The notes under the pieces: model-generated
Seen by the model: only the letters and a program-made list of their open reading frames with translations
What the model was told of the DNA's origin: nothing
Databases searched by the model: none
IMG/VR virus record: IMGVR_UViG_3300021373_002388
Span: 1 to 54,125 of that record
From: a virus
Taxonomy: Duplodnaviria > Caudoviricetes
Strand: one strand, 5' to 3'
DNA: 54,125 nt
Position numbers and translations under genes: made by a program
Shown: one piece after another, positions 1-51,324 of the stretch
How positions within the stretch are numbered: the stretch's first letter is position 1
Layout of the letters: the number at the start of each line of letters is the position of its first letter

Positions 1-2
1 TG

Positions 3-1186: not shown

Positions 1187-1219
1187 TAGATTTAATGTCT
1201 ATAATAATAAGGAACTGAC

Positions 1220-1639: not shown

Positions 1640-1653
1640 AGACAACCTATATT

Positions 1654-2376: not shown

Positions 2377-2391
2377 AAAAAGGAATAGATT

Positions 2392-2727
2392 ATGGCAGCA
2401 GTAAGAATACTAAAACTGGTCACTGGAGAAGATGTGATTGGTGTTATCGATGAGACAGAGGTTGATGAAGGTAAGAAGGTAATCTCTGTTAAGGCACCCC
2501 ATTATATAATGATGAGAGCAACCGGGGAAGATCAGAATGAATTTACACTGGGCCTTACACCGTATGCCCCTTACGCAAAGAATTCAGTTATTGGTCTAAT
2601 ACCACGCCACGTAATCTCAGTATGTGACCCGAACGATGATTTGATGAAGGCTTATAAAAAACGGTTTGATCAGGGTGTTGTGCGATCAGATGAACCCAGT
2701 GTGAAACAAGTCTTGAAGGAGGGCTAA
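2392..2727 (+). CDS. Conserved T4-like hypothetical protein (Sm/LSm-like fold likely)
   Basis: N-terminal ILKLVTGEDVIG pattern common upstream of gp43 in aquatic T4-like phages. Confidence 0.6.
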   Translation: MAAVRILKLVTGEDVIGVIDETEVDEGKKVISVKAPHYIMMRATGEDQNEFTLGLTPYAPYAKNSVIGLIPRHVISVCDPNDDLMKAYKKRFDQGVVRSDEPSVKQVLKEG

Positions 2728-2758
2728 CCACACTAACTATATTATTGATTGAGGCGAT

Positions 2759-5290: not shown

Positions 5291-6018
5291 AAATTTTGAT
5301 AGTTGGATTTGGGTTTGTTGGTACTGCCACAGATTATCTGTTCAGCGTTTCAGGGGGTCTTGATGTTAGGATTCATGACCCAATGAAGGGATTTGTCGCA
5401 GAGAAGGAACAATACGACTACATCTTTCTCTGTGTCCCAACTGATTTGGTCCACGGTAGGTTGGATATGACCATTCTTCATGACGCATGTAACGAGTGGA
5501 AAGACTATGGTCAAATTGTTATTAGAAGTACAATAGGACCAGATCAGGTACCCGAGTTTCCGAATGCTATTATGATGCCAGAGTTTCTTCGAGAAAAACA
5601 TTGGCGTGAAGATGTGGACAATCCATACATTCCTATTATTGTGAGTGACTACGTTCTTCACGGGCATCTTGATAGGGCTCTTCCAAATAAAACAATTTTG
5701 TATTTACCACCACAAACGGCTGCGTTTTTTAAGCTAGCTAGAAACAGTGCATTGGCAATGAAGGTCGCAGTGGCAAATGAGTTGTATGATATTTGCACTC
5801 ATCATGGCATCATTTATGATGACATTAGAGATTTGTTGGTGACTGATGTTGCGGTTGGTGGTACCCACTGGGATGTTCCGGGTCCAGATGGACAGCCGGG
5901 GTTTGGTGGTAAGTGTCTACCTAAAGACTTGACGCATACCGAGAAATTGTGTTATAATACGGACAATGTTTTTGAAACTGCTCTTAGATGTAATAAGCGC
6001 AGGAGACCTTTCGAATGA
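5287..6018 (+). CDS. UDP-glucose/GDP-mannose 6-dehydrogenase-like protein (short, lacks C-terminal domain)
   Basis: Rossmann GFGFVG, CVPT, IRST, PEFLRE, catalytic GFGGKCLPKD. Confidence 0.85.
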   Translation: MKILIVGFGFVGTATDYLFSVSGGLDVRIHDPMKGFVAEKEQYDYIFLCVPTDLVHGRLDMTILHDACNEWKDYGQIVIRSTIGPDQVPEFPNAIMMPEFLREKHWREDVDNPYIPIIVSDYVLHGHLDRALPNKTILYLPPQTAAFFKLARNSALAMKVAVANELYDICTHHGIIYDDIRDLLVTDVAVGGTHWDVPGPDGQPGFGGKCLPKDLTHTEKLCYNTDNVFETALRCNKRRRPFE

Positions 6019-6599
6019 GAGCATTAGTCCTTGGAAACGGTATAAGTAGATTAAATCGCTTATTACCACAAAATTGTGATGCAGTATGGGCATGTAATCT
6101 AGCATTTAAACACAATGTCCATGCCGACTACATTGTATCAACAGATGCCCACCGTCAACATGAAATTTGGATGAGCGGGTATGCTCAAGAGAAAAACTGC
6201 TTTTTTCTAGACTGGACCCCAATTCCCGCAAACAGAGAACTGCCAGATACCCTGAGAGATAGTGGGTTTAAAGTAATAGCTAATGAATATCGTGAAGGTA
6301 TGATGGTCATGAGCGGTTGGCAAAATACAATGTACGTAACATTTTTGGGTGAACAGCAGGGCCTTATCACGAACGTAAACATGCGCGAACTTCCGAGACG
6401 ATTTAGTTCGGGGGGGCTTGCCATGTGGTTAGCTGCAAAGACGGGGAATGATGAAATTCTACTGGCAGGTTTCGGTGATAAGAAACATGTCTATAGAGAG
6501 TACATAAGGGGCCCTGATGAACCACATATAGACCATTGGCAAAAAGAAAGAGATTTTATAATCAATCATTTTAAAGAAATTGAATGGAGATACATATGA
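6015..6599 (+). CDS. Hypothetical protein, possibly glycosyltransferase-like (GT29/Maf-like GNGxS fold)
   Basis: LVLGNGIS...CN...SSG..A...ILLAGF pattern; ATGA-coupled to both neighbours. Confidence 0.5.
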   Translation: MRALVLGNGISRLNRLLPQNCDAVWACNLAFKHNVHADYIVSTDAHRQHEIWMSGYAQEKNCFFLDWTPIPANRELPDTLRDSGFKVIANEYREGMMVMSGWQNTMYVTFLGEQQGLITNVNMRELPRRFSSGGLAMWLAAKTGNDEILLAGFGDKKHVYREYIRGPDEPHIDHWQKERDFIINHFKEIEWRYI

Positions 6600-7684
6600 G
6601 TTTGATAGATAAACTAACAAAGAACAGCACCGTAAAAGACACATCAGTACTCACTGAGTCTAAATTTTTTAACGCCAAAGACCTTATTCAAACAAGTGTA
6701 CCAGCACTTAACGTTGCTCTGAGCGGTCGTTTGGATGGTGGGCTAACTCCGGGCCTTACGGTTTTCGCTGGACCCTCAAAGCACTTTAAGACAGCTTTTT
6801 CATTACTGATGGCAAAGTCTTATCTGGACAAGTATGAAGATGCTGTTGTCCTTTTCTACGATTCAGAGTTTGGCACCCCACAGGATTATTTCACAACGTT
6901 TGGTATTGACACTGACCGAGTAATTCATACGCCAGTTACAGACATTGAGCAATTGAAGTTTGATTGTACCAAACAGCTTAAGGAAATCACTCGGGATGAC
7001 CGGGTAATTGTCATCGTTGATTCTGTTGGCAACCTTGCGAGTAAAAAGGAAGTAGAAGACGCTGAGAACGAAAAGAGTGTTGCTGACATGAGTCGAGCAA
7101 AAGCAATGAAGTCATTGTTCCGCATTGTCACCCCACACCTTACTTTAAAAGATATTCCTATGGTCGTGGTTAACCACACCTATAAGGAAATCTCTATGTA
7201 CCCGAAAGACATTGTTTCTGGTGGTACTGGGGTTTATTACTCAGCAGACAATATTTTCATCATTGGTCGGCAGCAGGATAAACCTAAAGATGAGGTTATC
7301 GGTTGGCACTTTATTATCAATGTTGAAAAGTCACGGTTTGTCCGCGAAAAATCCAAGATTCCACTTGAGGTTTCTTTCGAGGGCGGCATTAGCACTTGGT
7401 CTGGACTTTTAGACATGGCTCTAGATTCTGGTCATGTTATTAAGCCGGCCAATGGCTGGTACCAGAAAGTTGACATGGAAACAGGTGAAGAGATTGAAGG
7501 AAAGTTTCGTGCGAAGGATACCAATACAAAAGAGTTTTGGATTCCAATTCTTCAAGACAAAACTTTTGCCGAGTATATTGATAAGAGATACTCAATTTCA
7601 AATGTAGAGGGTATTGTAAATGATGACTTTTCTGAAGACGATTTGGCAGAGGCTTACGACTTGGCTGAAGCCTCCGAAGCCTGA
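6596..7684 (+). CDS. uvsX: RecA-like recombinase UvsX
   Basis: LNVALSG, Walker A AGPSKHFKT, FYDSEFG, IVDSVGNLASKKE, VEKSRFV. Confidence 0.97.
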   Translation: MSLIDKLTKNSTVKDTSVLTESKFFNAKDLIQTSVPALNVALSGRLDGGLTPGLTVFAGPSKHFKTAFSLLMAKSYLDKYEDAVVLFYDSEFGTPQDYFTTFGIDTDRVIHTPVTDIEQLKFDCTKQLKEITRDDRVIVIVDSVGNLASKKEVEDAENEKSVADMSRAKAMKSLFRIVTPHLTLKDIPMVVVNHTYKEISMYPKDIVSGGTGVYYSADNIFIIGRQQDKPKDEVIGWHFIINVEKSRFVREKSKIPLEVSFEGGISTWSGLLDMALDSGHVIKPANGWYQKVDMETGEEIEGKFRAKDTNTKEFWIPILQDKTFAEYIDKRYSISNVEGIVNDDFSEDDLAEAYDLAEASEA

Positions 7685-7838
7685 TAGGGTAGTAGGTGTC
7701 TGTGATTGCTGTGAGTCAGACATTATAGAAAACACTCCAGCCTTATGTTTTCATGACGATGACAATTCAATGTATCTTTGTGAAGTGTGTGTAGAAGAAG
7801 TGAGAAAGGAATTCATTAGACAAGAATATGCAAACTGA
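7620..7838 (+). CDS. Small Cys-rich hypothetical protein (possible Zn finger)
   Basis: CDCC...CEVC; fills the uvsX-gp41 gap; start uncertain. Confidence 0.5.
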   Translation: MMTFLKTIWQRLTTWLKPPKPDRVVGVCDCCESDIIENTPALCFHDDDNSMYLCEVCVEEVRKEFIRQEYAN

Positions 7839-9210
7839 AAATGTAGTAGTAGCAAATCTTCTGACCAATGAAGATTATTTCAGGAAGGTAATCCCTTACT
7901 TGGAACCAGAATACTTTACTGGCCCATATGCAGAAATGGTCGGTAAGATCAGAGAGTATTCTGATAAGTATGGTTCAATGCCTTCGCAAAAAGCACTGTC
8001 TATAATGATAGATGAATCCTCTCACATACATGAGGATGATGCGGCATTCATTAGTCAGTTCCTAGAGAACCCCTTGGAAAAAGAAGGGAATCTAGATTGG
8101 TTGGTGGATGAAACTGAAAAACACTGCAAACAAAAAGCAGTATTCAATGCCATTAAACAAAGCATTCAGATTATTGATGGCAGGGATGAAAACTATACCC
8201 CAGAAGCATTACCGGATATTCTTTCTCAGGCACTGAAGGTTGGTTTTGATACCAATATAGGTCACAACTATTTGAAGGATGCTGAAGCCCGATACGATTT
8301 TTATCATATTGTGGAAGAGCGTATTGAAACCGATATTGATATGCTCAACAGAATAACTAAGGGCGGTTTTCCACCTAAGAGTTTGAATGTTGCATTGGCA
8401 CCAACTGGTGTTGGTAAGACTCTTTTCATGTGTCACTTGGCTGCATACTGTTTGAGTGCTGGTTATAACGTTCTCTACGTTACCATGGAAATGGCTGAAG
8501 AAAGGATTGCTGAAAGAATCGATGCCAATCTGATGAACATACCACTATCAGAGCTTCCAGAATGCTCAAAAAATATGTTCTTGGACCGGGTTGGACAAAT
8601 CCAGAAAAAAACACAGGGTGAGTTGATCATCCGAGAATATCCAACTGCATCTGCACATGCTGGTCATATCAAGGCATTGATTGAAGAGCTTGAACTGAAG
8701 CAAGAGTTCAGACCACAGATTGTGTTTGTGGACTACTTGAATATCTGCACCAGCAGCAGATACAAAGCCGGTGGTGGTGCTAATAGCTACACAATCATTA
8801 AGTCCATTGCTGAAGAAATGCGTGGGGTTGCTGTAGAAAAAGCCTTACCATTTATAACAGCCACCCAGACTAACCGTGGTGGTTTTGATAACAGTGATAT
8901 TGATCTGACCGATACTTCAGAGTCTATGGGTCTACCGGCCACTGCAGACTTTTTCTTTGCACTGATCAGCACAGAAGAACTTCAGGAGCAGGGAATGATT
9001 TTGTTGAAACAACTGAAGAATCGTTACACGGATGTATCACGGAATAAGAGATTCATGATAGGCGTGGACCGTTCCAGAATGAAACTTCTCAATGTGGATA
9101 ACGCTGAAGAGGGGTTGGAAAGAGTCGCTGCCCCGGAAACAAATTCTGGTGGATTTGATATGACTCCATCGGGAGAACGAACCGGCGATTTTGATGGGTT
9201 TACTTTTTAG
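7828..9210 (+). CDS. gp41: Replicative DnaB-like helicase (T4 gp41-like)
   Basis: Walker A APTGVGKT, YVTMEMAEE, EYPT, VDYLNIC, ATQTNR, QLKNRY. Confidence 0.97.
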   Translation: MQTENVVVANLLTNEDYFRKVIPYLEPEYFTGPYAEMVGKIREYSDKYGSMPSQKALSIMIDESSHIHEDDAAFISQFLENPLEKEGNLDWLVDETEKHCKQKAVFNAIKQSIQIIDGRDENYTPEALPDILSQALKVGFDTNIGHNYLKDAEARYDFYHIVEERIETDIDMLNRITKGGFPPKSLNVALAPTGVGKTLFMCHLAAYCLSAGYNVLYVTMEMAEERIAERIDANLMNIPLSELPECSKNMFLDRVGQIQKKTQGELIIREYPTASAHAGHIKALIEELELKQEFRPQIVFVDYLNICTSSRYKAGGGANSYTIIKSIAEEMRGVAVEKALPFITATQTNRGGFDNSDIDLTDTSESMGLPATADFFFALISTEELQEQGMILLKQLKNRYTDVSRNKRFMIGVDRSRMKLLNVDNAEEGLERVAAPETNSGGFDMTPSGERTGDFDGFTF

Positions 9211-9214
9211 TCAG

Positions 9215-9222
9215 TATAAATA
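9215..9222 (+). promoter_or_regulatory. T4-type late promoter TATAAATA
   Basis: Exact consensus just upstream of GGAGG RBS and ATG 9241. Confidence 0.7.
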
Positions 9223-9240
9223 GTGGGGGAGGACCACATT

Positions 9241-9591
9241 ATGACTGACGAAACAATAAAAACAAAAACAGTTGAAGTTGAAAAAGAGGTTCTGAACCAA
9301 GATTTAAATGGTGATGGGAAGATCACTAAAGAAGAATATAATCTTGATCTGGAATTTAAGCGAAAGCGTTTAGAAGACGCAGACGCTATGCGTGATGCAC
9401 AACGAAAGATGGCATGGTTTGCCCTAGGCGGTATGCTGCTGTATCCGTTTGCGGTGGTGCTGGCTTCTCTGGCAGGATTAGAGACTGCATCTACTACTCT
9501 TGGTGATATGGCTGCTACTTATTTTGTATCAGTGGCTGCGATTGTGGCTGCGTTTTATGGAAAGACTGCGTTCGAAAACAGTAAACAATAA
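9241..9591 (+). CDS. Two-TM membrane protein with EF-hand-like loop (holin-like candidate)
   Basis: DLNGDGKITKEE loop then two hydrophobic helices; late promoter. Confidence 0.55.
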   Translation: MTDETIKTKTVEVEKEVLNQDLNGDGKITKEEYNLDLEFKRKRLEDADAMRDAQRKMAWFALGGMLLYPFAVVLASLAGLETASTTLGDMAATYFVSVAAIVAAFYGKTAFENSKQ

Positions 9592-9593
9592 TT

Positions 9594-10307
9594 ATGACTC
9601 ATATTTTTAATCGAGCCCCGGAGAATGACCGATTCGGGTTTTATGAAGAACTTTTCGGTGATCTAGAAGGTAAAACGGTTATGGATTTCGGGGGCAACTC
9701 TGGGAATCTTTTGCACTTTTCTGATGGGAAGATCAGGGAAGAAGATTATACTTGTGTTGATGTCGATTTGGAAGTCATGGAACAATCCATGATGGAATAT
9801 CCAATGGCTGAGTGGCTACATTATAACACCCACCATCCAGTGTATAATCCAACTGGTATTCGTTTTGCACCATTACCCCAGAGTAGACGAGAAACCTTTG
9901 ATTACATATTCTCGTACAGTGTTTTTTCTCATACGGATTTTAAAGAGTTGCATTATACTTTAAATAGAATGCGAGCAGTGTACAGTCCAACGGTAATGGC
10001 ACATAGTATCCAACTCACTTCAGATCATAAAATGGTTGAGTGGTATTATGATCGAAGGGTTGAGGAATATGGGCGCTGTGCGGATTTTCAGGAAGCGTTC
10101 GATGATTGTAAGGAGAGTGTTACTCTTGTAGATAACGATACTGTTTACGTGGATACCATGCAACTACCACTAAATACTTGTAAACACTTGGTGACTTTTT
10201 ACAAAAAGGACTGGTTGCTTTCTATGTTAAAATTTTATGGCTTTGATGTACAGCTAGTAAAGCCAACTGGATGTTATCAGACATACATTTTGATAAAAAG
10301 TGCTTGA
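9594..10307 (+). CDS. Class I SAM-dependent methyltransferase
   Basis: VMDFGGNSG motif I, CVDVD, FDYIFSYSVFSH. Confidence 0.8.
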   Translation: MTHIFNRAPENDRFGFYEELFGDLEGKTVMDFGGNSGNLLHFSDGKIREEDYTCVDVDLEVMEQSMMEYPMAEWLHYNTHHPVYNPTGIRFAPLPQSRRETFDYIFSYSVFSHTDFKELHYTLNRMRAVYSPTVMAHSIQLTSDHKMVEWYYDRRVEEYGRCADFQEAFDDCKESVTLVDNDTVYVDTMQLPLNTCKHLVTFYKKDWLLSMLKFYGFDVQLVKPTGCYQTYILIKSA

Positions 10308-10332
10308 CAACAGAATTTACATGTGATAGTAT
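10304..10332 (+). promoter_or_regulatory. sigma70-type early promoter
   Basis: TTGACA-N17-TAGTAT. Confidence 0.7.
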
Positions 10333-10394
10333 GTGTAATGAATATGCTCTAATTGAGTATATTGTTTTAACTTTAATATGATAAGGAGAAGATT

Positions 10395-10592
10395 ATGACT
10401 AATCGACGATATAACCAAAACACCCGCATTCTAACATTCCTGAATTCAGGCCGAACCCTGTCAGCCCCGCAAGCGGCTCGATTATTCGGTGCTCAATCAC
10501 TGAGCAAGCGAATCAGCGAACTTCGTGCTGAAGGTGTTGCGATTGAAACTACTACCAATCGTAGCGGGTACACTGCTTACCGACTGTCTTAA
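10395..10592 (+). CDS. Small winged-helix/HTH DNA-binding protein
   Basis: TLSAPQAARLFG..SLSKRISELRAEG..I pattern; AAGGAG RBS. Confidence 0.7.
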   Translation: MTNRRYNQNTRILTFLNSGRTLSAPQAARLFGAQSLSKRISELRAEGVAIETTTNRSGYTAYRLS

Positions 10593-10602
10593 GCAGCATG
10601 GT

Positions 10603-10633
10603 ATGGGCTCCACCTACGGGCCCATTCTTTCTT
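10603..10633 (+). terminator. Probable intrinsic terminator
   Basis: ATGGGCTC/GGGCCCAT stem followed by TCTTTCTT. Confidence 0.5.
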
Positions 10634-10651
10634 CCCAAATAGGTATCAAAA

Positions 10652-11143
10652 ATGGCAAATGATGTTGTAACTACTATCCGTGTGATCGGCTCAGAAGAAG
10701 CCACGGACGAATTTCGATTCTGGTTTACTGCTTTTCATGACAATCAAGAGGGTGTTGAATGCATGGAGTTTATGCCTCCATGGGACGAAGAGGACTACCC
10801 CAGTAAAGAGTGGATGAAGGATTGTGTAGGTTCAGACAACACGTTGGTAACCTATGTTAGTACGGGAAATGTTGACAGTGCCATTACATATATCCGAAGT
10901 ACTTGGTCACATGTTGTCCCATTCGCAGGATTGCTTGGGCACCATCTAAGAAACTTTGATGAAAATGTCAGGTTGGAAGTGACCTATGTTGACGAAATGA
11001 TGAATTTTGCTGGTTCTGGTAATTGGCATAAAGGTAAATGGAGCCTCACAGAAAAGGATGCATTCTTTTGGAGTGACTTTAGTGAAGAAGAAATTGACCA
11101 CCTGTTGGAAGTTTGGTTGGTTAGGAAGAAAGTATGTCTTTAA
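10652..11143 (+). CDS. Hypothetical protein (YubB/Api92 ferredoxin-like fold possible)
   Basis: MAN...I, STWS, YVDE..NFAG pattern. Confidence 0.45.
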   Translation: MANDVVTTIRVIGSEEATDEFRFWFTAFHDNQEGVECMEFMPPWDEEDYPSKEWMKDCVGSDNTLVTYVSTGNVDSAITYIRSTWSHVVPFAGLLGHHLRNFDENVRLEVTYVDEMMNFAGSGNWHKGKWSLTEKDAFFWSDFSEEEIDHLLEVWLVRKKVCL

Positions 11144-11481
11144 AATTGGTGGCATCCACTAAAGTATTCCAAAATATTGGCAGTTTGGATATGCCAATGT
11201 GGAAATGTGTTGACGGAAAAGAGTACATTGTTGGCTATTTTGATGAAGAACCAACGTGGAAAGAGGCTGGTGAGGTTATAAATAAGTTCATTCACTACTT
11301 GGAGGGTAACTTATCTATTGACACCAAAGAAATTTACAGTGGTTTTGATCTTTACGAGAAAGGCAAAATGACACATTGTGAATTTTTCCAGTTGGACAGC
11401 AGTGGAGTAATTGACTTCCCAGCTAAAGACTTGACTGAGATAGACGTTACAGACGTACTTAATGGACTCCAAGGAATATAG
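11134..11481 (+). CDS. Hypothetical protein
   Basis: Overlapping ORF in operon. Confidence 0.6.
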   Translation: MSLKLVASTKVFQNIGSLDMPMWKCVDGKEYIVGYFDEEPTWKEAGEVINKFIHYLEGNLSIDTKEIYSGFDLYEKGKMTHCEFFQLDSSGVIDFPAKDLTEIDVTDVLNGLQGI

Positions 11482-12187
11482 ACTCACAATAGGCTACACC
11501 TACTACGACGAACCCGAATTACTGAAGAACCAGTTAGAACACTGGCTTCGATACCCACCTGAGATTCAGATCATACTCGTTGATGATGGGTCTCAAAAAT
11601 ACCCCGCATATGAATTTTTAAAAGACTTGGATATTACAAACCTTCAGCTATGGGAAGTAGATGAGGATTTGGGATTCAACAGCCACGGCTGTAGAAATCT
11701 TATAGCTAGAATAGCCCCCACAGATTTTGTCCTGTTCATGGACATAGACTGCCTCATTTCACCCGATCAGGTTGCGTATTTAAAACGCATCAGATTGAAC
11801 CGGGACAAAATGTATCGGTTTGCATTATTAAACACCACCAATGACAAATATGACCCGTGGCCCGGACACCCAAATGTATTCCTAGTAAACAGGGATAAAT
11901 ATTGGGAGGCTGGTGGCTATGATGAATCTTTCACCGGCTGGCATAAGGGAGACAGAGAGTTCCACAGGCGATTAGAGAAGGTTGTTTTACCATCTAAGCT
12001 AACCAATAGTTTAGGAATTACTGTTGTCAGGGGAGGTCGTAGGGCTGTTTTAGACGAATCCCTAGACCGGATTGTATATGACGATGATGCCATGTTGATC
12101 AGATTGCCTGCACCCCCACCAAGCGAAAAAGATTTGGTGGGTACCGTTAAGGAAAAGATTAATTTTTCCTACACTAGAAAGTTATAA
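11462..12187 (+). CDS. Glycosyltransferase family 2 (GT-A fold)
   Basis: IILVDDGS, CRN, DxD motif FMDID, GGYDESFTGW. Confidence 0.85.
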   Translation: MDSKEYRLTIGYTYYDEPELLKNQLEHWLRYPPEIQIILVDDGSQKYPAYEFLKDLDITNLQLWEVDEDLGFNSHGCRNLIARIAPTDFVLFMDIDCLISPDQVAYLKRIRLNRDKMYRFALLNTTNDKYDPWPGHPNVFLVNRDKYWEAGGYDESFTGWHKGDREFHRRLEKVVLPSKLTNSLGITVVRGGRRAVLDESLDRIVYDDDAMLIRLPAPPPSEKDLVGTVKEKINFSYTRKL

Positions 12188-32893: not shown

Positions 32894-33092
32894 TGTTTGG
32901 GAGGCATTGTTTCAAGAGGAATACGAGATAGTTGTATACCTTAACAAAAAGCTTACCAAGAAAAACACATATGCGGCAAAGAAGGTTATTAAGTCATCCC
33001 CAAAACATTTCGTTTGGGTTGGCACTGATGGTAAGAAACACGAGTTGAAATTTGTTAACCCGGTAAATTACCACATAACCAAATTAATCTAG
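32877..33092 (+). CDS. Hypothetical protein
   Basis: ORF from ATG 32877 overlapping the previous gene. Confidence 0.55.
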   Translation: MFKITDVWEALFQEEYEIVVYLNKKLTKKNTYAAKKVIKSSPKHFVWVGTDGKKHELKFVNPVNYHITKLI

Positions 33093-33581
33093 GGGCTTGT
33101 ACGGGTCATAATAGCGCCCCGGCTGATATCCTTCTGGGATAGAGTCGTTCTCGGGTATGAGAGTCGTGTGCTGTGCGTTGCAGATGTATTTGTACTTACC
33201 ACGCGCCCGTCTCTTTTCGGACATTTTTAATTTGGTTTCGTACTTGTGTTTTCTGCCATACATGTTATTATTCTCACCACGAAACTTGCCAGTCTTGGCT
33301 TTTATTATTTTTTGACGGTGCTCTTCGGAGATACCATTTTGATGTGGAGGATTTTTCTTAACGCCAGCACTGATTTTGTCTTTGGTCTCTTGAGTATGTT
33401 TGGTGCGTTTTCTTGCCTTATCTACCGCAAACTCAATACCCTGCTTCTCTGCGTATTCCCGCAGAACTTCAACAGCGTTGGCTTTACGTACTAATTCCCG
33501 TGGCTTGGGTACCTTATCGACACCCTTGTTATCCACGAGATAATACCCTTCATTTGTATGGAATATAAAGTAAGATTTCAT
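33084..33581 (-). CDS. NUMOD3-motif DNA-binding protein (homing-endonuclease-related)
   Basis: HTQETKDKIS, SEEHRQKI, GENNNMYGRKHKYETKLKMS, IPEGY..GR; only convincing minus-strand gene. Confidence 0.75.
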   Translation of the reverse strand: MKSYFIFHTNEGYYLVDNKGVDKVPKPRELVRKANAVEVLREYAEKQGIEFAVDKARKRTKHTQETKDKISAGVKKNPPHQNGISEEHRQKIIKAKTGKFRGENNNMYGRKHKYETKLKMSEKRRARGKYKYICNAQHTTLIPENDSIPEGYQPGRYYDPYKPLD

Positions 33582-46359: not shown

Positions 46360-46556
46360 AAGACCGTGATTATGAAAATGAGGCAGTAGTTGATTATTGG
46401 GCGGAGCATTATCTTACTCAGCATTGTGTGTTGTGTGGAAATACTGGCTTCATAGATACCAGAGGCAGGGCTGTTACTCCAGCGGGACTGGATGTTGGGG
46501 CTAGGGTTCATTGTATTTGCCCTAATGGACAGTGCATAAGGAATATTGAAAAATGA
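46356..46556 (+). CDS. Small Cys-rich hypothetical protein
   Basis: CVLCGNTG.IDT...CICPNG. Confidence 0.6.
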   Translation: MKDRDYENEAVVDYWAEHYLTQHCVLCGNTGFIDTRGRAVTPAGLDVGARVHCICPNGQCIRNIEK

Positions 46557-46595
46557 AGAATATATACGACCCAAATTCGAAAAGGAACTAATAAA

Positions 46596-46862
46596 ATGAA
46601 AAAGTTTTATGTATCAGGTATCCCCCAGAAGAGAGGAAGACATAGAATAAAGTCTATAGAACCTATAGGACGATACGAAGACGAAATACTCAATACACAT
46701 ACAGTATACAGAGTATGGATAAACTGTGGTTATGTAGATTACTATAAGGGATGTGAACTGAAACTAAAAGACCATCAAGGTAAACCATGTACAGGGTATG
46801 AAGTAGATAGTACCATGAACTCATTACTAGAGGCATTAAAGATACTAGAAGAAGAGGATTAA
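46596..46862 (+). CDS. Hypothetical protein
   Basis: AAGGA RBS; last gene before the non-coding block. Confidence 0.55.
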   Translation: MKKFYVSGIPQKRGRHRIKSIEPIGRYEDEILNTHTVYRVWINCGYVDYYKGCELKLKDHQGKPCTGYEVDSTMNSLLEALKILEEED

Positions 46863-47096
46863 GTGTCCCTGAGAAACACTGAGCGAAGCCCTCTCAAGCC
46901 CTCTCCGTAAAACCTACCAGTAAATAATACTGTACCATTCGAGACCCACCAGTAAAATCAACTGGAACCACTGGGTAAAACAGTAAGATTTACTGCTTAA
47001 ACTTTAGTTGAATTATGTGAAAAGCTTCTGGGAAAAACGTATAGACCTTATCTGGCTCATTATTTGTTTTACTCAGAAACACTCCAATTCTTTCTC

Positions 47097-47125
47097 ATTA
47101 TACTCTATTTTTTCCTAAAAGTCAA
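47097..47125 (-). promoter_or_regulatory. sigma70 promoter (minus)
   Basis: TTGACT-N17-TATAAT. Confidence 0.75.
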
Positions 47126-47170
47126 TGAAAAACCTCCAAAAACTCTCAGAAAAAACCGAAGTGTAAAAAC

Positions 47171-47199
47171 TTGACATTTGAATCAAAATTTGGTAAAAT
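47171..47199 (+). promoter_or_regulatory. sigma70 promoter
   Basis: TTGACA-N17-TAAAAT. Confidence 0.75.
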
Positions 47200-47248
47200 G
47201 TAAGGTTTTTGAGAGTTTTACTTGGAGAATCTCTGAGTAAAACCTTCC

Positions 47249-47277
47249 AGTATATCACAGTAAAATTTGCTTGTCAA
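47249..47277 (-). promoter_or_regulatory. sigma70 promoter (minus)
   Basis: TTGACA-N17-TATACT. Confidence 0.75.
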
Positions 47278-47280
47278 GTC

Positions 47281-47310
47281 TTGACATTTAGTAAGTTTTA
47301 CTGGTATACT
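47281..47310 (+). promoter_or_regulatory. sigma70 promoter
   Basis: TTGACA-N18-TATACT; back-to-back with the minus promoter via TGTCAAGTCTTGACA palindrome. Confidence 0.7.
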
Positions 47311-47359
47311 GGGAGTAGCGACTTGAGAAAACGTGGAGAATCTCTGAGTAAAACCTTCC

Positions 47360-47388
47360 AGTATACTATAGAAAAACCTTTTTGTCAA
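47360..47388 (-). promoter_or_regulatory. sigma70 promoter (minus)
   Basis: TTGACA-N17-TATACT. Confidence 0.75.
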
Positions 47389-47411
47389 GAGAAACTTTAA
47401 GAAAAAAATGC

Positions 47412-47440
47412 TTGACATTGGGGTTGTCTTTTAGTACTAT
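47412..47440 (+). promoter_or_regulatory. sigma70 promoter
   Basis: TTGACA-N17-TACTAT. Confidence 0.75.
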
Positions 47441-47446
47441 AATCTG

Positions 47447-47475
47447 GCGGGAACGGAGACACCGGAGTACAAGAC
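47447..47475 (+). repeat. GCGGGAAC..ACCGG motif copy A (candidate small RNA 5' end)
   Basis: GCGGGAAC-GGAGAC-ACCGGAGTACAAGAC, 6 nt after a -10 box. Confidence 0.8.
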
Positions 47476-47527
47476 ACGGTGCTCGCCTAGAAAAAACATG
47501 GCATCCATATGTCAGGCAGGGTTCATC

Positions 47528-47555
47528 CTTGGACTCCGGTCTCTAATGTTCCCGC
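47528..47555 (-). repeat. GCGGGAAC..ACCGG motif copy B
   Basis: GCGGGAAC-ATTAGAG-ACCGGAGTCCAAG on minus strand, 6 nt after a -10 box. Confidence 0.8.
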
Positions 47556-47561
47556 ATTATT

Positions 47562-47590
47562 AAGATACTATATGCAAGCCTTTTTGTCAA
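47562..47590 (-). promoter_or_regulatory. sigma70 promoter (minus)
   Basis: TTGACA-N17-TATCTT. Confidence 0.65.
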
Positions 47591-47593
47591 GTG

Positions 47594-47734
47594 TTTTGCA
47601 ACCTTATTTGCAACTAATATGCGAGTTTTATTTGCAACCTTTTTGCAGATTTTATTTGCAACCTTTTTGCAGATTTTATTTGCAAGTCAGATGCAGATTT
47701 TATTTGCAACCTTTTTGCAGATTTTATTTGCAGA
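47594..47734. repeat. 24-bp tandem repeat TTTTATTTGCAACCTTTTTGCAGA
   Basis: Exact units at 47626, 47650 and 47698; variant at 47674; degenerate/partial units at both ends. Confidence 0.92.
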
Positions 47735-47990
47735 TCATTCGAGGGTCGAGATGCAAAAACTTGGGTGTACCGGGCGAAACTGGGTGGGCCACAAGGGGGT
47801 AGCCTAGGAGACATACAGAGAAAAATCGGCAAAAACATCTGAGAAAAATTCGCAAAAAAACTGGGAGAACCCGGCGAAAAACTCAGCGGAGCCTCTGGGG
47901 AACTCGCGAAAAAAAGTCCAAGGCAATCGCGGGAAAAAAACGCATTGAACCGAAATCTGGGAGCACGTATGAGCTTACGGAAAAAACTGC

Positions 47991-48019
47991 TTGACACAAA
48001 GGGTCAAATATGGTACGAT
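47991..48019 (+). promoter_or_regulatory. sigma70 promoter
   Basis: TTGACA-N17-TACGAT. Confidence 0.7.
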
Positions 48020-48074
48020 GTATGGGGTCTAGGTAAAATGGGAGTCATTACGTAAATGACGCCCACACTCCCCC

Positions 48075-48102
48075 CTTGGACTCCGGTTTCCTAAGTTCCC
48101 GC
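48075..48102 (-). repeat. GCGGGAAC..ACCGG motif copy C
   Basis: GCGGGAAC-TTAGGAA-ACCGGAGTCCAAG on minus strand. Confidence 0.8.
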
Positions 48103-48131
48103 TCGGTGTGTATCTCTTTATGTTGTAACCC

Positions 48132-48159
48132 ATTATAATGATCTAAACCGAAATTGCAA
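48132..48159 (-). promoter_or_regulatory. sigma70 promoter (minus)
   Basis: TTGCAA-N16-TATAAT with upstream A-tracts. Confidence 0.65.
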
Positions 48160-48192
48160 GCTTTTTTTTAACTTTTTTTAACTTTTTTTCTA

Positions 48193-48222
48193 TTGACTTT
48201 CAGGTTTTTTTCGTGTTATAAT
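48193..48222 (+). promoter_or_regulatory. sigma70 promoter
   Basis: TTGACT-N18-TATAAT with extended -10 TG. Confidence 0.7.
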
Positions 48223-48268
48223 AAAGTAGCGTCTTGACGCCGGGGAAAAACACTCGGGCACCCTCCCC

Positions 48269-48298
48269 GTTTTGTACCCCGGTTTCCTAAGTTCCCGC
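48269..48298 (-). repeat. GCGGGAAC..ACCGG motif copy D
   Basis: GCGGGAAC-TTAGGAA-ACCGGGGTACAAAAC on minus strand. Confidence 0.8.
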
Positions 48299-48324
48299 AC
48301 GATTTCCCCTATGTCTTGAAAATC

Positions 48325-48352
48325 ATTATAATGATCTAGAAAAAAATTGCAA
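48325..48352 (-). promoter_or_regulatory. sigma70 promoter (minus)
   Basis: TTGCAA-N16-TATAAT. Confidence 0.65.
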
Positions 48353-48361
48353 GCATTATTT

Positions 48362-48381
48362 TACTGTTATTTTATACAGTA
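48362..48381. promoter_or_regulatory. LexA (SOS) box
   Basis: TACTGTTATTTTATACAGTA matches TACTGT-N8-ACAGTA. Confidence 0.7.
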
Positions 48382-48411
48382 GAAAATTTTTCTGTAGAAG
48401 AGTAAAAAAGC

Positions 48412-48440
48412 TTGACATGGTTCTTTTATTTCCCTATAGT
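48412..48440 (+). promoter_or_regulatory. sigma70 early promoter
   Basis: TTGACA-N17-TATAGT then AACAACACGAGG leader. Confidence 0.8.
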
Positions 48441-48469
48441 AGAACCATAAAACAACACGAGGTAACACT

Positions 48470-49303
48470 ATGAAACGCCAACAAGCCAAACAAATCACGA
48501 AAGCAGTATCAGAGAGAGACTATAGCAAGGTTATTTCCCTGATTGATATCGCACTAGCTACCGGGGAAGAAGGGCCTAGTTGGGTCCGCGATCTTACTAA
48601 GATCAAGGAATTTATTCAAGACGGAAAGCCCCGGTTTTCTATATTTGCCAAAGATGGAAACGGTAAGCTTCCATTCTTGGCGTTTTCCAGCATACCCGGC
48701 GAAGGTTTTTGTGGTGGTGCTGGTGAATGCCTGAATTTCTGTTATAGCTTTCGAGCATGGCGATACCCTGCAGCATTTTGTCGACAAGTACAGAATTCAA
48801 TCCTGTTACAGTCTAAATCCGGGCAAGATTCTATCTTGGCTGCGCTGGATAAGTTTAAGACAGATTCAATTGATTTCCGACTATATGTTGACGGGGATTT
48901 TACTGGGATTGAGGATATAGAATTCTGGTTTTCTGCTTTGATTGCCCGACCATGGTTAAAAACTTATGGTTATAGTAAATCATGGCAATCCCTGCTTGAT
49001 TACTCTGGGGAATACCCGGAAAACTACCAACTAAACCTTTCTAGCGGTTCAATATACGGGGACGATATAAAAGCCCGCGTATCTCAATTGCCTATTACTA
49101 GGGGTGAGTTTATAGCCGTTTCAGTAGGCCACAAGGTAAAATCCAGCGACCATGGGAACCGGGACCACCAAAAACTTCTGCGGGAAGTCTACGGGAAAAA
49201 AGCTTTTACTTGTCCGGGGCTCTGTGGTGATTGTACCAATAAGGGGCATGCATGTGGCTCTGATCGATTCAAGGGGCTAGATATCATTATAGCGGTTCAC
49301 TAA
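48470..49303 (+). CDS. Phage gp88-like protein (radical-SAM-like Cys motif)
   Basis: GNGKL..FS.IPG..CGGAGECLNFCY, FRLYVDGDF, YGYSK, C-terminal CPG.CGDC...HAC. Confidence 0.65.
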   Translation: MKRQQAKQITKAVSERDYSKVISLIDIALATGEEGPSWVRDLTKIKEFIQDGKPRFSIFAKDGNGKLPFLAFSSIPGEGFCGGAGECLNFCYSFRAWRYPAAFCRQVQNSILLQSKSGQDSILAALDKFKTDSIDFRLYVDGDFTGIEDIEFWFSALIARPWLKTYGYSKSWQSLLDYSGEYPENYQLNLSSGSIYGDDIKARVSQLPITRGEFIAVSVGHKVKSSDHGNRDHQKLLREVYGKKAFTCPGLCGDCTNKGHACGSDRFKGLDIIIAVH

Positions 49304-49318
49304 AAAGGGGGGATTGTC

Positions 49319-49345
49319 AAGGGGCTCTATATGGGCCCCTTTTTT
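49319..49345 (+). terminator. Intrinsic terminator
   Basis: AAGGGGCTC-TATAT-GGGCCCCTT plus T run. Confidence 0.8.
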
Positions 49346-49362
49346 GACCCTGAAAAAAAAAT

Positions 49363-49391
49363 TTGACTTTTAGTTTTTTTCGTGTTATAAT
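49363..49391 (+). promoter_or_regulatory. sigma70 promoter
   Basis: TTGACT-N17-TATAAT; paralog of the 48193 promoter. Confidence 0.75.
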
Positions 49392-49436
49392 GAAAGTAGC
49401 GACCTTTCGCCCCAGCTTCAATCGCCCACTCTCCCC

Positions 49437-49464
49437 GTCTTGTACTCCGGTTTCGTGTTCCCGC
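49437..49464 (-). repeat. GCGGGAAC..ACCGG motif copy E
   Basis: GCGGGAAC-ACGAA-ACCGGAGTACAAGAC on minus strand. Confidence 0.8.
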
Positions 49465-49487
49465 TCGTTTCCTCTATGTTGTAACCC

Positions 49488-49515
49488 ATTATAATGATCT
49501 AGAAAAAAATTGCAA
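49488..49515 (-). promoter_or_regulatory. sigma70 promoter (minus)
   Basis: TTGCAA-N16-TATAAT, same sequence as the 48325 promoter. Confidence 0.65.
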
Positions 49516-49524
49516 GCATTATTT

Positions 49525-49544
49525 TACTGTTTTTTTATACAGTA
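49525..49544. promoter_or_regulatory. LexA (SOS) box
   Basis: TACTGTTTTTTTATACAGTA directly abutting a -35 box. Confidence 0.7.
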
Positions 49545-49572
49545 TTGACTTTTCCTGAGATATCCCTATAAT
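49545..49572 (+). promoter_or_regulatory. sigma70 early promoter
   Basis: TTGACT-N16-TATAAT. Confidence 0.75.
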
Positions 49573-49607
49573 GGTTTCAACATCAACAAAACGAGGGAAC
49601 AACAGAG

Positions 49608-49808
49608 ATGGATAAAATCGATCACGAAGCAATCACCATAGCCATTTTAGATGAGCATATCGCTCTTTTGAAACAAGCTTTTAAAGAAGCTGGGGGTGAG
49701 TTTCCCACGTTTAGCCCTGACCCTGTAAAGGAGCGTAGAAAGGTTTTGAAGCTTATCCGGGCAATGAAGCGAACTAGAGCGTGGTTTGTTTCCCCAGAGG
49801 AAGCCTAG
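49608..49808 (+). CDS. Hypothetical early protein
   Basis: Own promoter and ACGAGG leader. Confidence 0.6.
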   Translation: MDKIDHEAITIAILDEHIALLKQAFKEAGGEFPTFSPDPVKERRKVLKLIRAMKRTRAWFVSPEEA

Positions 49809-49857
49809 TACACAGATAAAAAACCCTATCGAATCCGTGAAATTTCTTAAAAACCCC

Positions 49858-49885
49858 TTGACAAAATCTAGAAATAGGGTATTAT
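49858..49885 (+). promoter_or_regulatory. sigma70 early promoter
   Basis: TTGACA-N16-TATTAT. Confidence 0.7.
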
Positions 49886-49920
49886 TAAGACACTACCAAC
49901 AACCAACGAGGAACAACAAC

Positions 49921-50292
49921 ATGGCTTACATGAACCAAGAAACAAAGAAGAAACTGGCTCCCGGTATCAAAGCCGTTCTAGCTGAATACGGTATGAAGGG
50001 AACCTTGTCTGTTCGAAACCACATGGTCCTAGAAGTTAACATTAGGAAAGGGGCTCTAGACGTTGCTCAAGACGTAAAAGAGTCCCATGGTCGGGATTAC
50101 TTCCAAGTCAACCCTTACTGGTTTGACGAGCATTACACGGGTAAGACAAGGGAGTTTCTGGGTAAGCTTATGGCCGCAATCAAGGGCGATCAGTGGTACG
50201 ATAACAGTGACGCTATGACCGACTATTTCGACACTGCTTATTACTTCGATATCAATATCGGGGAATATGGAAGACCCTACGAAAAAATTTAA
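49921..50292 (+). CDS. Hypothetical early protein (LPD29-like motif)
   Basis: GAGG RBS; LSVRNH, YDNSDAMTDYFD. Confidence 0.65.
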   Translation: MAYMNQETKKKLAPGIKAVLAEYGMKGTLSVRNHMVLEVNIRKGALDVAQDVKESHGRDYFQVNPYWFDEHYTGKTREFLGKLMAAIKGDQWYDNSDAMTDYFDTAYYFDINIGEYGRPYEKI

Positions 50293-50311
50293 ATTAATTG
50301 CTCTAGGGGTA

Positions 50312-50340
50312 TTGACAAGGGGCTATAGGTTCGATACTAT
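50312..50340 (+). promoter_or_regulatory. sigma70 early promoter embedded in inverted repeat
   Basis: TTGACA-N17-TACTAT. Confidence 0.75.
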
Positions 50341-50372
50341 AGCTCCAACATCAACGAAACGAGGAAAACAAA

Positions 50373-50666
50373 ATGAACTCAGCGAAAAATCTTTTAGACT
50401 ACGCTCGAAAGCAAGGTTACAAAGTAGCCGTAACATGTGCCAGTGAGGGGGACGTATTACAAAAGTCTACCACTAGCTGGCCCAAGATCAAGGAAGCTAT
50501 CGAATCAACTGGATACGTTCACATGGTAGTCCGGGACACTATAAACAAAATCTCAGTTGCCACGGCACTGGTAATCGATCACGACGATACTGAGGAATGG
50601 GTTAGTGATTACGGGGTCAACGCTTTTATGGATGGATGGGAAAAACAAGTTTACGCACGGAATTAA
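50373..50666 (+). CDS. Hypothetical early protein
   Basis: ACGAGG RBS; EEWVSDY. Confidence 0.65.
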   Translation: MNSAKNLLDYARKQGYKVAVTCASEGDVLQKSTTSWPKIKEAIESTGYVHMVVRDTINKISVATALVIDHDDTEEWVSDYGVNAFMDGWEKQVYARN

Positions 50667-50683
50667 GTTGTTGTTGGTGCTTT

Positions 50684-50711
50684 GGGGGGTCTATATGGCC
50701 CCCTTTTTTTT
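50684..50711 (+). terminator. Intrinsic terminator
   Basis: GGGGGTC-TATAT-GGCCCCC plus T8; same design as the 49319 terminator. Confidence 0.8.
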
Positions 50712-50746
50712 GGATTCCAACCACGTAAAAGACACGCAGGGGTGGT

Positions 50747-50774
50747 GTTTTGTACTCCGGTTTCGTGTTCCCGC
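50747..50774 (-). repeat. GCGGGAAC..ACCGG motif copy F
   Basis: GCGGGAAC-ACGAA-ACCGGAGTACAAAAC on minus strand. Confidence 0.8.
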
Positions 50775-50785
50775 TTTATGGTTTA

Positions 50786-50813
50786 ACTATACCAAACTCA
50801 CAAGAAAAGTCAA
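50786..50813 (-). promoter_or_regulatory. sigma70 promoter (minus)
   Basis: TTGACT-N16-TATAGT. Confidence 0.7.
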
Positions 50814-50846
50814 GGGTTTTTTCTGAAAAAAACTTAAAAAAAACTA

Positions 50847-50874
50847 TTGACTTTTCCTTTTATCTGGGTATACT
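50847..50874 (+). promoter_or_regulatory. sigma70 early promoter
   Basis: TTGACT-N16-TATACT. Confidence 0.7.
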
Positions 50875-50881
50875 ACTAATC

Positions 50882-51009
50882 ATAGAGTGATCGGATGGGA
50901 CGGGTAAATATCCGACTTGATGAAGGTGTTCCCCGCCTGACGCTACCCCGTAAAGGTAGGCCCTGAAGTGAACCGAGTGATCTTCGGAGAGCTTTAGGGG
51001 TCACTCTAT
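50882..51009 (+). ncRNA. Candidate structured RNA (about 128 nt) at transcript start
   Basis: Closing stem ATAGAGTGA/TCACTCTAT; inner stems TCGGAT/ATCCGA, CTACC/GGTAG, CCCTGAAG/CTTTAGGG, CCGA/TCGG. Confidence 0.6.
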
Positions 51010-51039
51010 AACACCAACTTACAACGAGAGGATTATATT

Positions 51040-51255
51040 ATGAGAGAATTTTTTACCCGTAGACCTTTAGACAATGCCCCCATCGTAGTCAAAGAGGGTG
51101 TTGAGGGATTTTTCCCGATGCAGGATAAGACTGTTTCAGACGCTACTCTGAAGGCTTTGAATGAGGCCCACGGTAACACAGAGAAAGACGTTCTACACGC
51201 TGTTTCCTGCTCTATGTTTGGTTGGGATATCCCGGCTGCTGATTTGATTTCATAA
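51040..51255 (+). CDS. Hypothetical early protein
   Basis: GAGG RBS; SMFGWD.PAA motif. Confidence 0.65.
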   Translation: MREFFTRRPLDNAPIVVKEGVEGFFPMQDKTVSDATLKALNEAHGNTEKDVLHAVSCSMFGWDIPAADLIS

Positions 51256-51261
51256 GGGGGG

Positions 51262-51290
51262 TTGACAAGGGGTCATAGGTTCGATACTAT
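51262..51290 (+). promoter_or_regulatory. sigma70 early promoter embedded in inverted repeat
   Basis: TTGACA-N17-TACTAT. Confidence 0.75.
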
Positions 51291-51324
51291 GACCCCAACA
51301 TCAACAACCAACAAGGACAACAAA

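Follow-up and report, generated by a model that had tools for sequence, protein, structure and literature searches.

Predicted promoter-driven small RNA genes in a T4-like phage and their possible part in replication control

We analyzed a block of densely packed promoters in a tailed-phage genome fragment (IMG/VR record IMGVR_UViG_3300021373_002388). The record is one contig of 54,125 bases, and the whole record was taken as the window; the block lies at 47,097 to 48,440. Judged from its sequence, the block groups several genes for small non-coding RNAs and belongs to the early region of a T4-like phage. Its module is, on the same basis, a strong leftward promoter of the sigma70 type followed by a conserved RNA element, which we call M1, or in two modules by a shorter element, M2. 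We suggest, with somewhat less than even confidence, that this early small-RNA cluster works as a replication-origin or replication-control hub.

A dense block of promoters in alternating orientation

Promoters were scored out of 12 by their matches to the -35 hexamer TTGACA and the -10 hexamer TATAAT, placed 16-18 nucleotides (nt) apart. The original prediction had listed 12 promoters in strictly alternating orientation, and all of them were recovered in place, with 10-11 consensus matches and spacers of 16-18 nt. There were 12 sites of at least 10/12 in 47090-48445, compared with a mean of 0.35 (sd 0.60, maximum 4) in 1000 dinucleotide-preserving shuffles of the same stretch; seven sites reached at least 11/12, compared with a shuffle mean of 0.02. 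The median 1356-base-pair (bp) segment of the record contains one site of at least 10/12, and the block has the highest promoter density of the record. The orientations run -,+,-,+,-,+,-,+,-,+,-,+, and for six promoters on each strand only 2 of 924 possible orders alternate. By sequence criteria, these are predicted promoters of the sigma70 type (T4 early mode).

The pairing of the promoters was likewise as proposed. Five face-to-face pairs have 50, 50, 122, 113 and 103 bp between their -10 boxes, and a sixth pair, P+49363/P-49515, has 97 bp. Further, each leftward promoter stands back-to-back with a rightward one at a distance of 4-60 bp, giving seven divergent pairs in 3.8 kb, and the alternation of strands results from this cassette structure. 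The spacers between divergent promoters are A+T-rich (25-30% G+C). The palindrome reported for one divergent pair, TGTCAAGTCTTGACA, was found at 47271-47285, where it is formed by the -35 boxes of P-47277 and P+47281 (47249..47310; both 11/12). The spacer between P-48159 and P+48193 (29% G+C) is filled at 48163-48189 by a perfect 10-nt tandem repeat, TTTTTTTAAC, in 2.7 copies, a candidate for an UP element or for a spacer that melts easily.

Three rightward promoters (48412, 49545 and 50847) serve protein genes, and those at 47171, 47281, 47412, 47991, 48193 and 49363 read into M1 or M2 from the opposite side. Among the 12 promoters of the block, only P+48412 is followed by a protein gene with support, again as predicted (48470-49303 on the plus strand, 277 amino acids (aa), Pfam GP88, E 2e-12; promoter and gene together, 48412..49303).

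M1 and M2 lie behind the promoters

M1 is a conserved element of ~50 nt. It occurs six times in the window, five times on the minus strand, and each copy starts 6-29 nt past a -10 box (+47447, -47555, -48102, -48298, -49464 and -50774; M1 A+, A-, b, c, d and e, respectively). The sequence consists of GCGGGAAC, 6-8 nt, CCGG(A/G)GU(A/C)CAA and then a variable G- or C-rich tract. We built a profile hidden Markov model from 46 M1 sequences, all from other phages, and searched the record with nhmmer. Exactly six matches were obtained (E 6e-11 to 1.2e-8), and the next match had E = 3.

M1 A+ (plus strand, from 47447; E 1.2e-8) and M1 A- (minus strand, from 47555; E 6.3e-9) form an inverted pair at 47447..47556, each 6 nt past a -10 box; A- is driven by P-47590 (47562..47590, minus strand; 10/12). 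The pair forms a 110-nt perfect-ended hairpin (-49.9 kcal/mol, z -5.4; none of 200 shuffles was as good). M1 b and P-48159, which has an A-rich upstream tract, occupy 48030..48159 on the minus strand (E 9e-9). M1 c and P-48352 (48228..48352, minus strand; E 3e-9; repeat families D2 and D20) include a terminator-like hairpin at 48228-48241 and are faced by P+48193 (48193..48222, plus strand; 11/12 with TG). Two cassettes lie outside the block. The first (49363..49572) comprises P+49363, a hairpin at 49398-49411, M1 d (49417-49466, minus strand; E 1.4e-9), P-49515 and P+49545, and is 86% identical to the M1 c cassette (family D2). The second (50724..50874) comprises M1 e (50724-50776, minus strand; E 6e-11), P-50813 and P+50847; M1 e has no facing plus-strand promoter and faces the terminator of the upstream gene. 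M1 b, c and d each lie in a copy of one duplicated cassette, in which a promoter and a leader precede M1 and a short G+C hairpin with a U-rich tail follows it (families D2, D15 and D20). The predicted M1 b RNA is ~95 nt long and ends in the hairpin followed by AUUUUA.

M2 is a second repeated element, whose two copies are 85% identical to each other (family D6). Copy 1 (TGGAGAATCTCTGAGTAAAACCTTCCAGTATA; 47222..47254) lies between the convergent P+47171 (47171..47199, plus strand; TTGACA N17 TAAAAT with TG; 11/12) and P-47277, and folds as a small hairpin (-10.2 kcal/mol, z -2.0). Copy 2 (47334..47365) lies between the convergent P+47281 and P-47388; the latter is divergent from P+47412 (47360..47440; 11/12 and 10/12). 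The face-to-face pairs each enclose M1 or M2, and therefore convergent transcripts would overlap by ~36-110 nt. The proposal that the region is a source of complementary sense and antisense RNAs is thus supported as a prediction.

A syntenic relative retains the elements better than the promoters

A metagenome contig of 3669 bases, CENS01070025.1 (L097/L098), is syntenic with window positions 47.2-50.9 kb in reverse orientation. Because this independent contig has a syntenic block with the same kinds of elements, an assembly artefact, which the original prediction had named as a possible refutation, was ruled out.

Identity between the window and the relative over the block is 54%, counting gaps. 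The core of M1 b is 94% and M2 copy 2 is 91% identical, compared with 79-80% for M1 A- and c. A 50-nt block upstream of P+47991 is 87% identical (47941..48019 with the promoter, plus strand; 10/12). The promoter stretches are 0-79% identical, with 54-79% for the ten of 12 that align with few gaps; the leftmost, P-47125 (47097..47125, minus strand; TTGACT N17 TATAAT; 11/12), is 76% identical. The M1 b promoter of the relative has a different sequence in the same place and still scores 10/12. Back-to-back -35 pairs are retained, including both -35 boxes of P-47277/P+47281, and the relative has 14 promoter-like sites in 2.7 kb, compared with 6.1 expected. Its repeat array (see below) has fewer units but retains the TGCA phasing. 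Open reading frames (ORFs) in the block reach 127 aa, and the gaps of the relative across these ORFs are 47 and other non-triplet lengths. From this pattern of conservation we conclude that the block is real and under selection, and that the transcribed elements are the most constrained. Further, the relative has no M1 A+, and therefore the long A+/A- hairpin is not essential; P+48193 is deleted in it, and therefore the facing promoter is not essential.

M1 is widespread in phages

Scans with exact patterns detected M1 once per genome in Vequintavirinae phages of Klebsiella, Proteus, Raoultella, Cronobacter, Salmonella and Escherichia, and in three unrelated contigs (95, 147 and 262 kb), none of which matches the DNA polymerase of the present phage. 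A variant, type B, consists of a variable hairpin followed by GAGACAAWCACC-N5-UGCSYG, and is present in rV5-, phi92-, PVP-SE1-, CR3- and phiTE-like phages and in further contigs. With a window copy of M1 as the query, BLAST detected Pseudomonas phages PPSC2, PHB09 and KIL4, Vibrio phages 1.101.O and 11895-B1, and others. In total, the family spans Vequintavirinae, Stephanstirmvirinae, Pseudomonas phages of the KIL/PPSC2 type, Vibrio and Aeromonas phages and many marine contigs. Some genomes have two copies, in tandem in the rV5 type and ten kb apart in CR3. A single scan of metagenomes yielded 95 loci; about half were low in G+C and phage-like, with the full motif behind a promoter, and the rest were high-G+C chance matches. 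All carriers with a named host infect Gammaproteobacteria. Phages that differ widely in family and host all retain the invariant core (…GAGUACAA… or …GAGACAAWCACC…).

Collapse to less than 93% identity and removal of eight hits (five doubtful, three coding) left 76 distinct instances, of which the window contributed six. Because the instances were gathered by exact patterns, divergent members are under-sampled. A promoter of at least 9/12 was present within 110 nt upstream in 66 of the 76, compared with 10% of 287 control positions in the same loci; note that the controls for this count and for the helix counts below ignore kinship among M1 sequences. The median distance from the -10 box to the M1 core was 33 nt (66 instances), and in most instances M1 starts 6-40 nt past the -10 box. 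In annotated records, M1 lies in a gene-free gap and is directed against the neighbouring genes.

Rfam contained no counterpart. The whole window matched no family at the gathering score; with E values up to 5 admitted, 46500-51300 gave only three chance-level matches, all to families of eukaryotes or viruses, and ten related loci gave nothing at E up to 0.1. Rfam family RF03044 (Proteo-phage-1; threshold 42 bits) had no match in the window, and its best scores, 11.9 and 11.7 bits, were elsewhere in two rV5-type genomes. Literature searches with six M1-derived strings retrieved no phage paper, a search on non-coding RNA of rV5 retrieved nothing describing M1 among the papers listed, and a paper on the ICP1 origin gave no usable link. 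On these sequence searches, M1 represents a widespread phage family that is listed in no RNA database searched (Rfam).

Several loci have further features beside M1. In Vequintavirinae, a second promoter-driven non-coding element stands ~130 nt upstream of M1 (L061 300-400, L060 310-400 and L065 1205-1290); it begins CCACCCCACGGCGAAAAGGCGGGG, matches no Rfam family, and has a leader (…agaggaaacg) resembling that of M1 d in the window. The M1 locus of Raoultella phage Ro1 is matched in two pieces, with ~740 bp more between them than in its relatives. An HNH endonuclease is annotated at this place in RefSeq, and thus a homing endonuclease was probably inserted beside M1. In OY978796.1 (L015), two tRNA genes (Ile and Met) are annotated over the M1 locus at 1746-1899. 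ARAGORN does not reproduce them, neither the window nor this record gave any tRNA or tmRNA gene, and the annotation looks misplaced.

Evidence for a likely role of M1 as RNA

The fixed position and strand of M1 relative to promoters argue that it is transcribed. In 19 of 24 type-B sequences, a helix of 4 bp or more directly adjoins the invariant core; the helices are of 14 different sequences, several with G-U pairs. The corresponding frequency was 40% in mononucleotide shuffles and 5-8 of 24 when the test was slid 3-10 nt upstream. A competing helix of at least 3 bp, in which the core forms the loop, is possible in 44 of the 76 instances, compared with 30% of controls. Some covariation appears to be present in M1 helices among mutually related sequences. 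From these sequence comparisons, we consider it likely that M1 functions at the RNA level.

A repeat array resembling T4 oriE

An iteron-like array lies at 47593..47735 (plus strand), starting 14 nt upstream of the -35 box of P-47590. Its 24-nt unit, TTATTTGCAACCTTTTTGCAGATT, is present in 5.4 copies and consists of 12-nt halves, with TGCA recurring every 11-13 nt, 11 times in 47597-47729; Tandem Repeats Finder (TRF) called period 24 x 5.4 and period 11. To its right follow an A-tract-rich stretch (47800..47945, plus strand) with runs of 5-7 A and a 23-nt repeat, GAGAAAAATCGGCAAAAA, then the conserved 50-nt block and P+47991. To its left, AGTAAAAY/RTTTTACT motifs in both orientations are clustered at 46900..47370 (families D7, I3 and I5), and a partial, inverted copy of M2 lies inside this cluster at 47066-47087. 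Of 16 AGTAAAA(C/T) sites in the record, eight are within 46863-48469, compared with 0.5 expected from length.

By its repeat spacing, the array would be classed with T4 oriE-type origins, as these are defined in a T4 review (PMC3016281). We compared the window with the T4 oriE region (L192). In T4, a minus-strand promoter-like site lies at 7378, and an array with a 24-nt period (4.8 copies) lies just upstream at 7427-7558. The layout of the window is the same: a period-24 array, and a leftward early-type promoter whose transcript is antisense to the genes. In both cases the phage is T4-like and the promoter is an early-mode sigma70 promoter on the strand opposite to the surrounding genes. In the annotation of the T4 record, the primer RNA of oriE is complementary to the transcript of gene 5. 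At T4 oriF and oriG, R-loop transcripts prime leading-strand synthesis, according to the review (PMC3016281). Origins of the oriF/oriG type combine a MotA-dependent middle promoter with an A+T-rich unwinding element downstream of it; the A+T-rich stretches noted in the window are the spacers between divergent promoters. P-47590 adjoins the window array and is directed leftward, opposite to the coding strand; its transcript may serve as a primer. In contrast to the window, T4 has its array inside gene 5, where its role is unproven, and has no M1; the window has seven divergent promoter pairs and six M1 copies in place of one T4 promoter. T4 oriE is the closest known arrangement, and the likeness is one of layout and not proof of function.

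Protein-binding boxes and repeats follow M1 in other phages

We counted boxes in the flanks of the 41 M1 instances that have 300 nt on both sides, using the consensus motifs of the DnaA box and the Fur box. At least two DnaA boxes (one mismatch allowed) were present downstream of M1 in 10 of 41 and upstream in 0 of 41. Fur-box-like sites (at most 6 mismatches in 19) were present downstream in 10 of 41 and upstream in one of 41. Downstream of M1 in four loci (L099, L131, L105 and L166) there are A+T-rich palindromes and clustered DnaA boxes, at most nine per cluster. Other loci have a 46-nt repeat x 5 downstream of M1 (L064) or six 12-nt GTTTGGCACCTC repeats (L139), and phiTE and BIS47 have Fur-like boxes and GATCGAGACCC repeats downstream of M1. 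Such arrays of boxes and repeats fit an origin, but host proteins could equally dock at them or be titrated by them.

In rV5-like phages (Vequintavirinae and Stephanstirmvirinae), the non-coding control regions carry no annotation. They resemble the block in that M1, here of type B, stands directly behind a conserved promoter in a gene-free region and is directed against the neighbouring genes. They differ in having one or two copies of M1 per genome, followed by Fur-box-like boxes and GATCGAGACCC-type repeats, neither of which is present in the window.

Fur-box-like boxes of the AAATGAGAATCATTATCATT type, often with DnaA boxes, were also noted downstream of M1 in rV5-like, Vibrio and marine phages. 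The sites of this type are in L065 (1410-1530), L189 (1550-1625), L166, L112 and phage T5 (L195; 9480-9800). The T5 site belongs to the injection-stop region (iss) of the terminal repeat, which has DnaA and AAATGAGAATCATTATCATT-type boxes like those following M1 elsewhere. In contrast, no M1 was found in T5 1-11500, the part that was searched, and the window has no such boxes. The combination of AAATGAGAATCATTATCATT-type and DnaA boxes looks like a shared docking module for host proteins in virulent phages.

A possible role in replication control

Of the functions suggested in the original prediction, a transcription-primed origin like those of T4 is the best supported. The support is indirect: the array upstream of a leftward promoter in the window, and M1 heading arrays of DnaA boxes or iterons elsewhere. 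In the mechanism that we propose, host RNA polymerase would fire all block promoters right after infection, and transcription from the divergent pairs would open the A+T-rich spacers. Like the T4 oriE primer RNA, the leftward M1 transcripts are antisense to the genes; they would activate or prime DNA synthesis beside the 12/24-nt array, and the convergent rightward transcripts would restrain them as antisense RNAs, in the manner of RNA I and RNA II. As in ColE1 RNA I/RNA II control, the sense and antisense RNAs from convergent promoters ~100 bp apart would overlap completely, and the overlap would be at the 5' end of a transcript running toward origin-like DNA. The likeness to ColE1 is one of predicted transcript layout only: there is no sequence relationship, and M1 e and copy c of the relative have no facing promoter.

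Several observations weigh against this role in replication. We found no replication data for this phage or for any M1-bearing phage. According to the T4 review (PMC3016281), the oriE iterons have yet to be tied to origin activity; since the T4 array is coding sequence of gene 5, its resemblance to the window array could be coincidental, and M1 was not found in T4. Six copies of M1 exceed the needs of an origin. No iterons adjoin M1 c, d and e, which are situated between early genes, and DnaA or Fur-like boxes are absent downstream of every window copy. Since the relative has no P+48193 and M1 e has no facing promoter, control by antisense RNA cannot be obligatory. With regard to folding, the two candidate helices are mutually exclusive, and both are only moderately above controls. 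RNAalifold gave no pairs for a MAFFT alignment of 23 type-B sequences, and a column-pair screen of that alignment gave noise. Single-copy M1 RNAs fold no better than shuffles (z -0.7 to -1.5), and their single-sequence folds differ from one another; no consensus fold was obtained.

A broader proposal, which we put forward more tentatively than the role of the block itself, is that M1 may be an "origin RNA" of virulent phages of Gammaproteobacteria and marine bacteria. M1 would be a short promoter-proximal RNA whose invariant, loop-like core recruits a conserved host factor or is read by it and which, together with arrays of DnaA boxes, Fur-like boxes or iterons, would form an early replication and takeover hub in T4-like, rV5-like, phi92-like and jumbo marine phages. 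If this were true, M1 would mark the still unmapped origins of these phage groups. To our knowledge, replication origins are unmapped for nearly all T4-like phages except T4, and for rV5-, phi92- and PVP-SE1-like phages; the latter three groups are widely used in phage therapy work. The marker would be a promoter, then M1 and then repeat arrays, and would make origins in many families directly testable. Further, the near-invariance of the M1 core across distant phages points to an interaction with a conserved host component. The window has an extreme form of M1, with six copies and convergent partners, and is as such a good test case for sense/antisense control of early replication or host takeover.

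Alternative explanations

The strongest alternative to a role in replication, to which we assign roughly a one-in-four chance, makes M1 and M2 small RNAs that act in trans and are produced in large amounts straight after infection. They would be sponges or mimics of a conserved host protein or RNA, serving takeover or counter-defence, with copies amplified for dose; the repeats that neighbour M1 elsewhere would then be a separate early-control feature. Each of the six M1 copies has its own near-consensus promoter, and M1 b, c and d look like discrete genes of ~90-100 nt ending in a hairpin and a U-rich tail; six copies with terminators like those of small RNAs fit this explanation better than they fit an origin. 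The presence of two copies in rV5-type phages (in tandem) and in CR3 also agrees with it, and an invariant core across families and hosts fits recognition by a conserved host factor. There is a precedent in pseudo-ToxI, a phage RNA decoy produced by copy-number expansion, as described in part of PMC3475682. On the other hand, no partner is known, and 5,426 E. coli genomes contained no stretch similar or complementary to a 121-nt query of the rV5 type. The directional link between M1 and arrays of DnaA boxes or repeats is left unexplained, and no Rfam family, RNA antitoxins among them, matches the 24-nt array.

Two related candidates were rejected. Mimicry of a host sequence by M1 was considered from 39 pattern matches in the genome_contigs collection; all were without a promoter and the extended motif, and their number was about that expected by chance. 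A ToxI-like array of type III antitoxins was rejected as the identity of the 24-nt repeats, 46500-51300 having no Rfam match at E up to 5 apart from the chance-level eukaryotic and viral ones. The M1 locus of phiTE has no ToxI-like tandem repeat.

It is unlikely that M1 is a cis-acting element of nascent RNA like HK022 put, after whose synthesis the polymerase resists pausing, termination and roadblocks and reads through the bound arrays. The comparison rests on position and description and not on sequence. In HK022, putL lies just downstream of PL, and put RNA has two stem-loops with which it binds RNA polymerase and suppresses termination. The put RNAs are ~70 nt long and need no protein factor (PMC9378689). 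Both put and M1 are thus elements of ~50-70 nt just downstream of a strong early promoter in phages of Gammaproteobacteria, M1 lying in most instances 6-40 nt past the -10 box, as putL lies past PL. Further, the named hosts are all Gammaproteobacteria, whose polymerase is highly conserved, and arrays of DnaA and Fur-like boxes stand in the path of the transcript. In contrast to put, M1 is transcribed from the window in the non-coding direction, and for three of the transcripts a terminator-like hairpin follows within ~100 nt; moreover, the E. coli genomes have no M1 match and no two-stem-loop fold is supported.

We consider it slightly less probable still that the block is functionless recombination debris, in which mobile promoter-terminator cassettes (PeSL), by which T4-type phages reshuffle early genes, piled up after the loss of intervening genes. 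PeSL cassettes have been described for T4-type genomes (PMC2839356 and PMC4122927). Such units, a terminator stem-loop and then an early promoter beside small early genes, are present in the window at 49321-49391 and 50684-50874, and the M1 cassettes b, c and d are mutual duplicates. PeSL units account for the rightward promoters beside genes but not for M1, M2 or the leftward promoters. Further, the conservation of M1 reaches far beyond T4-like phages, and its placement with respect to a promoter is always the same; M1 and M2 are much better conserved than their flanks in the relative. We also noted that the G+C hairpin terminators of these units, 49321-49345 and 50685-50709, are 92% identical, each followed by an early promoter, and flank small early genes.

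A promoter sink for RNA polymerase or sigma70, or a polymerase-driven DNA entry device like that of T7, both raised in the original prediction, is very improbable: the promoter density is the highest of the record (12 in 1.36 kb, compared with a median of one), but in the relative the transcribed M1 and M2 elements (91-94%) outlast the promoters and one facing promoter is absent, and the orientations alternate, not all pointing inward, within a T4-like contig in which nothing marks a genome end. T4-type phages package DNA by the headful without fixed ends, which also argues against entry. A T7-type entry cluster, with strong host promoters all pointing inward at the leading end, was rejected by the alternating orientations and the internal position.

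Genomic setting and minor observations

The proteins of the record match the replication and nucleotide-metabolism set of T4: the gp44/62 clamp loader, RegA, DNA polymerase, UvsX, the gp41 helicase, the gp61 primase, NrdA/B, dCMP deaminase and an exonuclease. From these matches, the phage is T4-like but divergent; the 54-kb record covers part of its genome, with a completeness of ~33% by CheckV. Because the contig is a fragment, further origins or M1 copies may lie beyond its ends. The DNA polymerase is at most 47% identical to that of any phage in the "phages" collection, cyanophages being nearest, and the DNA of the block had no match in that collection.

The block sits in an ORF-free gap of 1.6 kb (46863-48469), which divides a run of small genes from a second run of small early genes with their own promoters. 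The first gene past the M1 block, at 48470-49303, encodes the cysteine-rich protein of the GP88 family; a search of the viral_contigs collection with this gene gave no related locus. In an unrelated marine contig (L129, from ~1790 onward), M1 is followed by a cysteine-rich ORF that is like this gene by eye only.

All protein genes with support are on the plus strand, with the sole exception of an ORF of 165 aa at 33084-33581, which is the only sizeable minus-strand ORF of the record. It has a NUMOD3 motif (E 1.7e-9) and thus probably encodes a homing endonuclease. This ORF sits in a 750-bp gap, with DnaA-box-like 9-mers, each with one mismatch, at 33514, 33529 and 33629.

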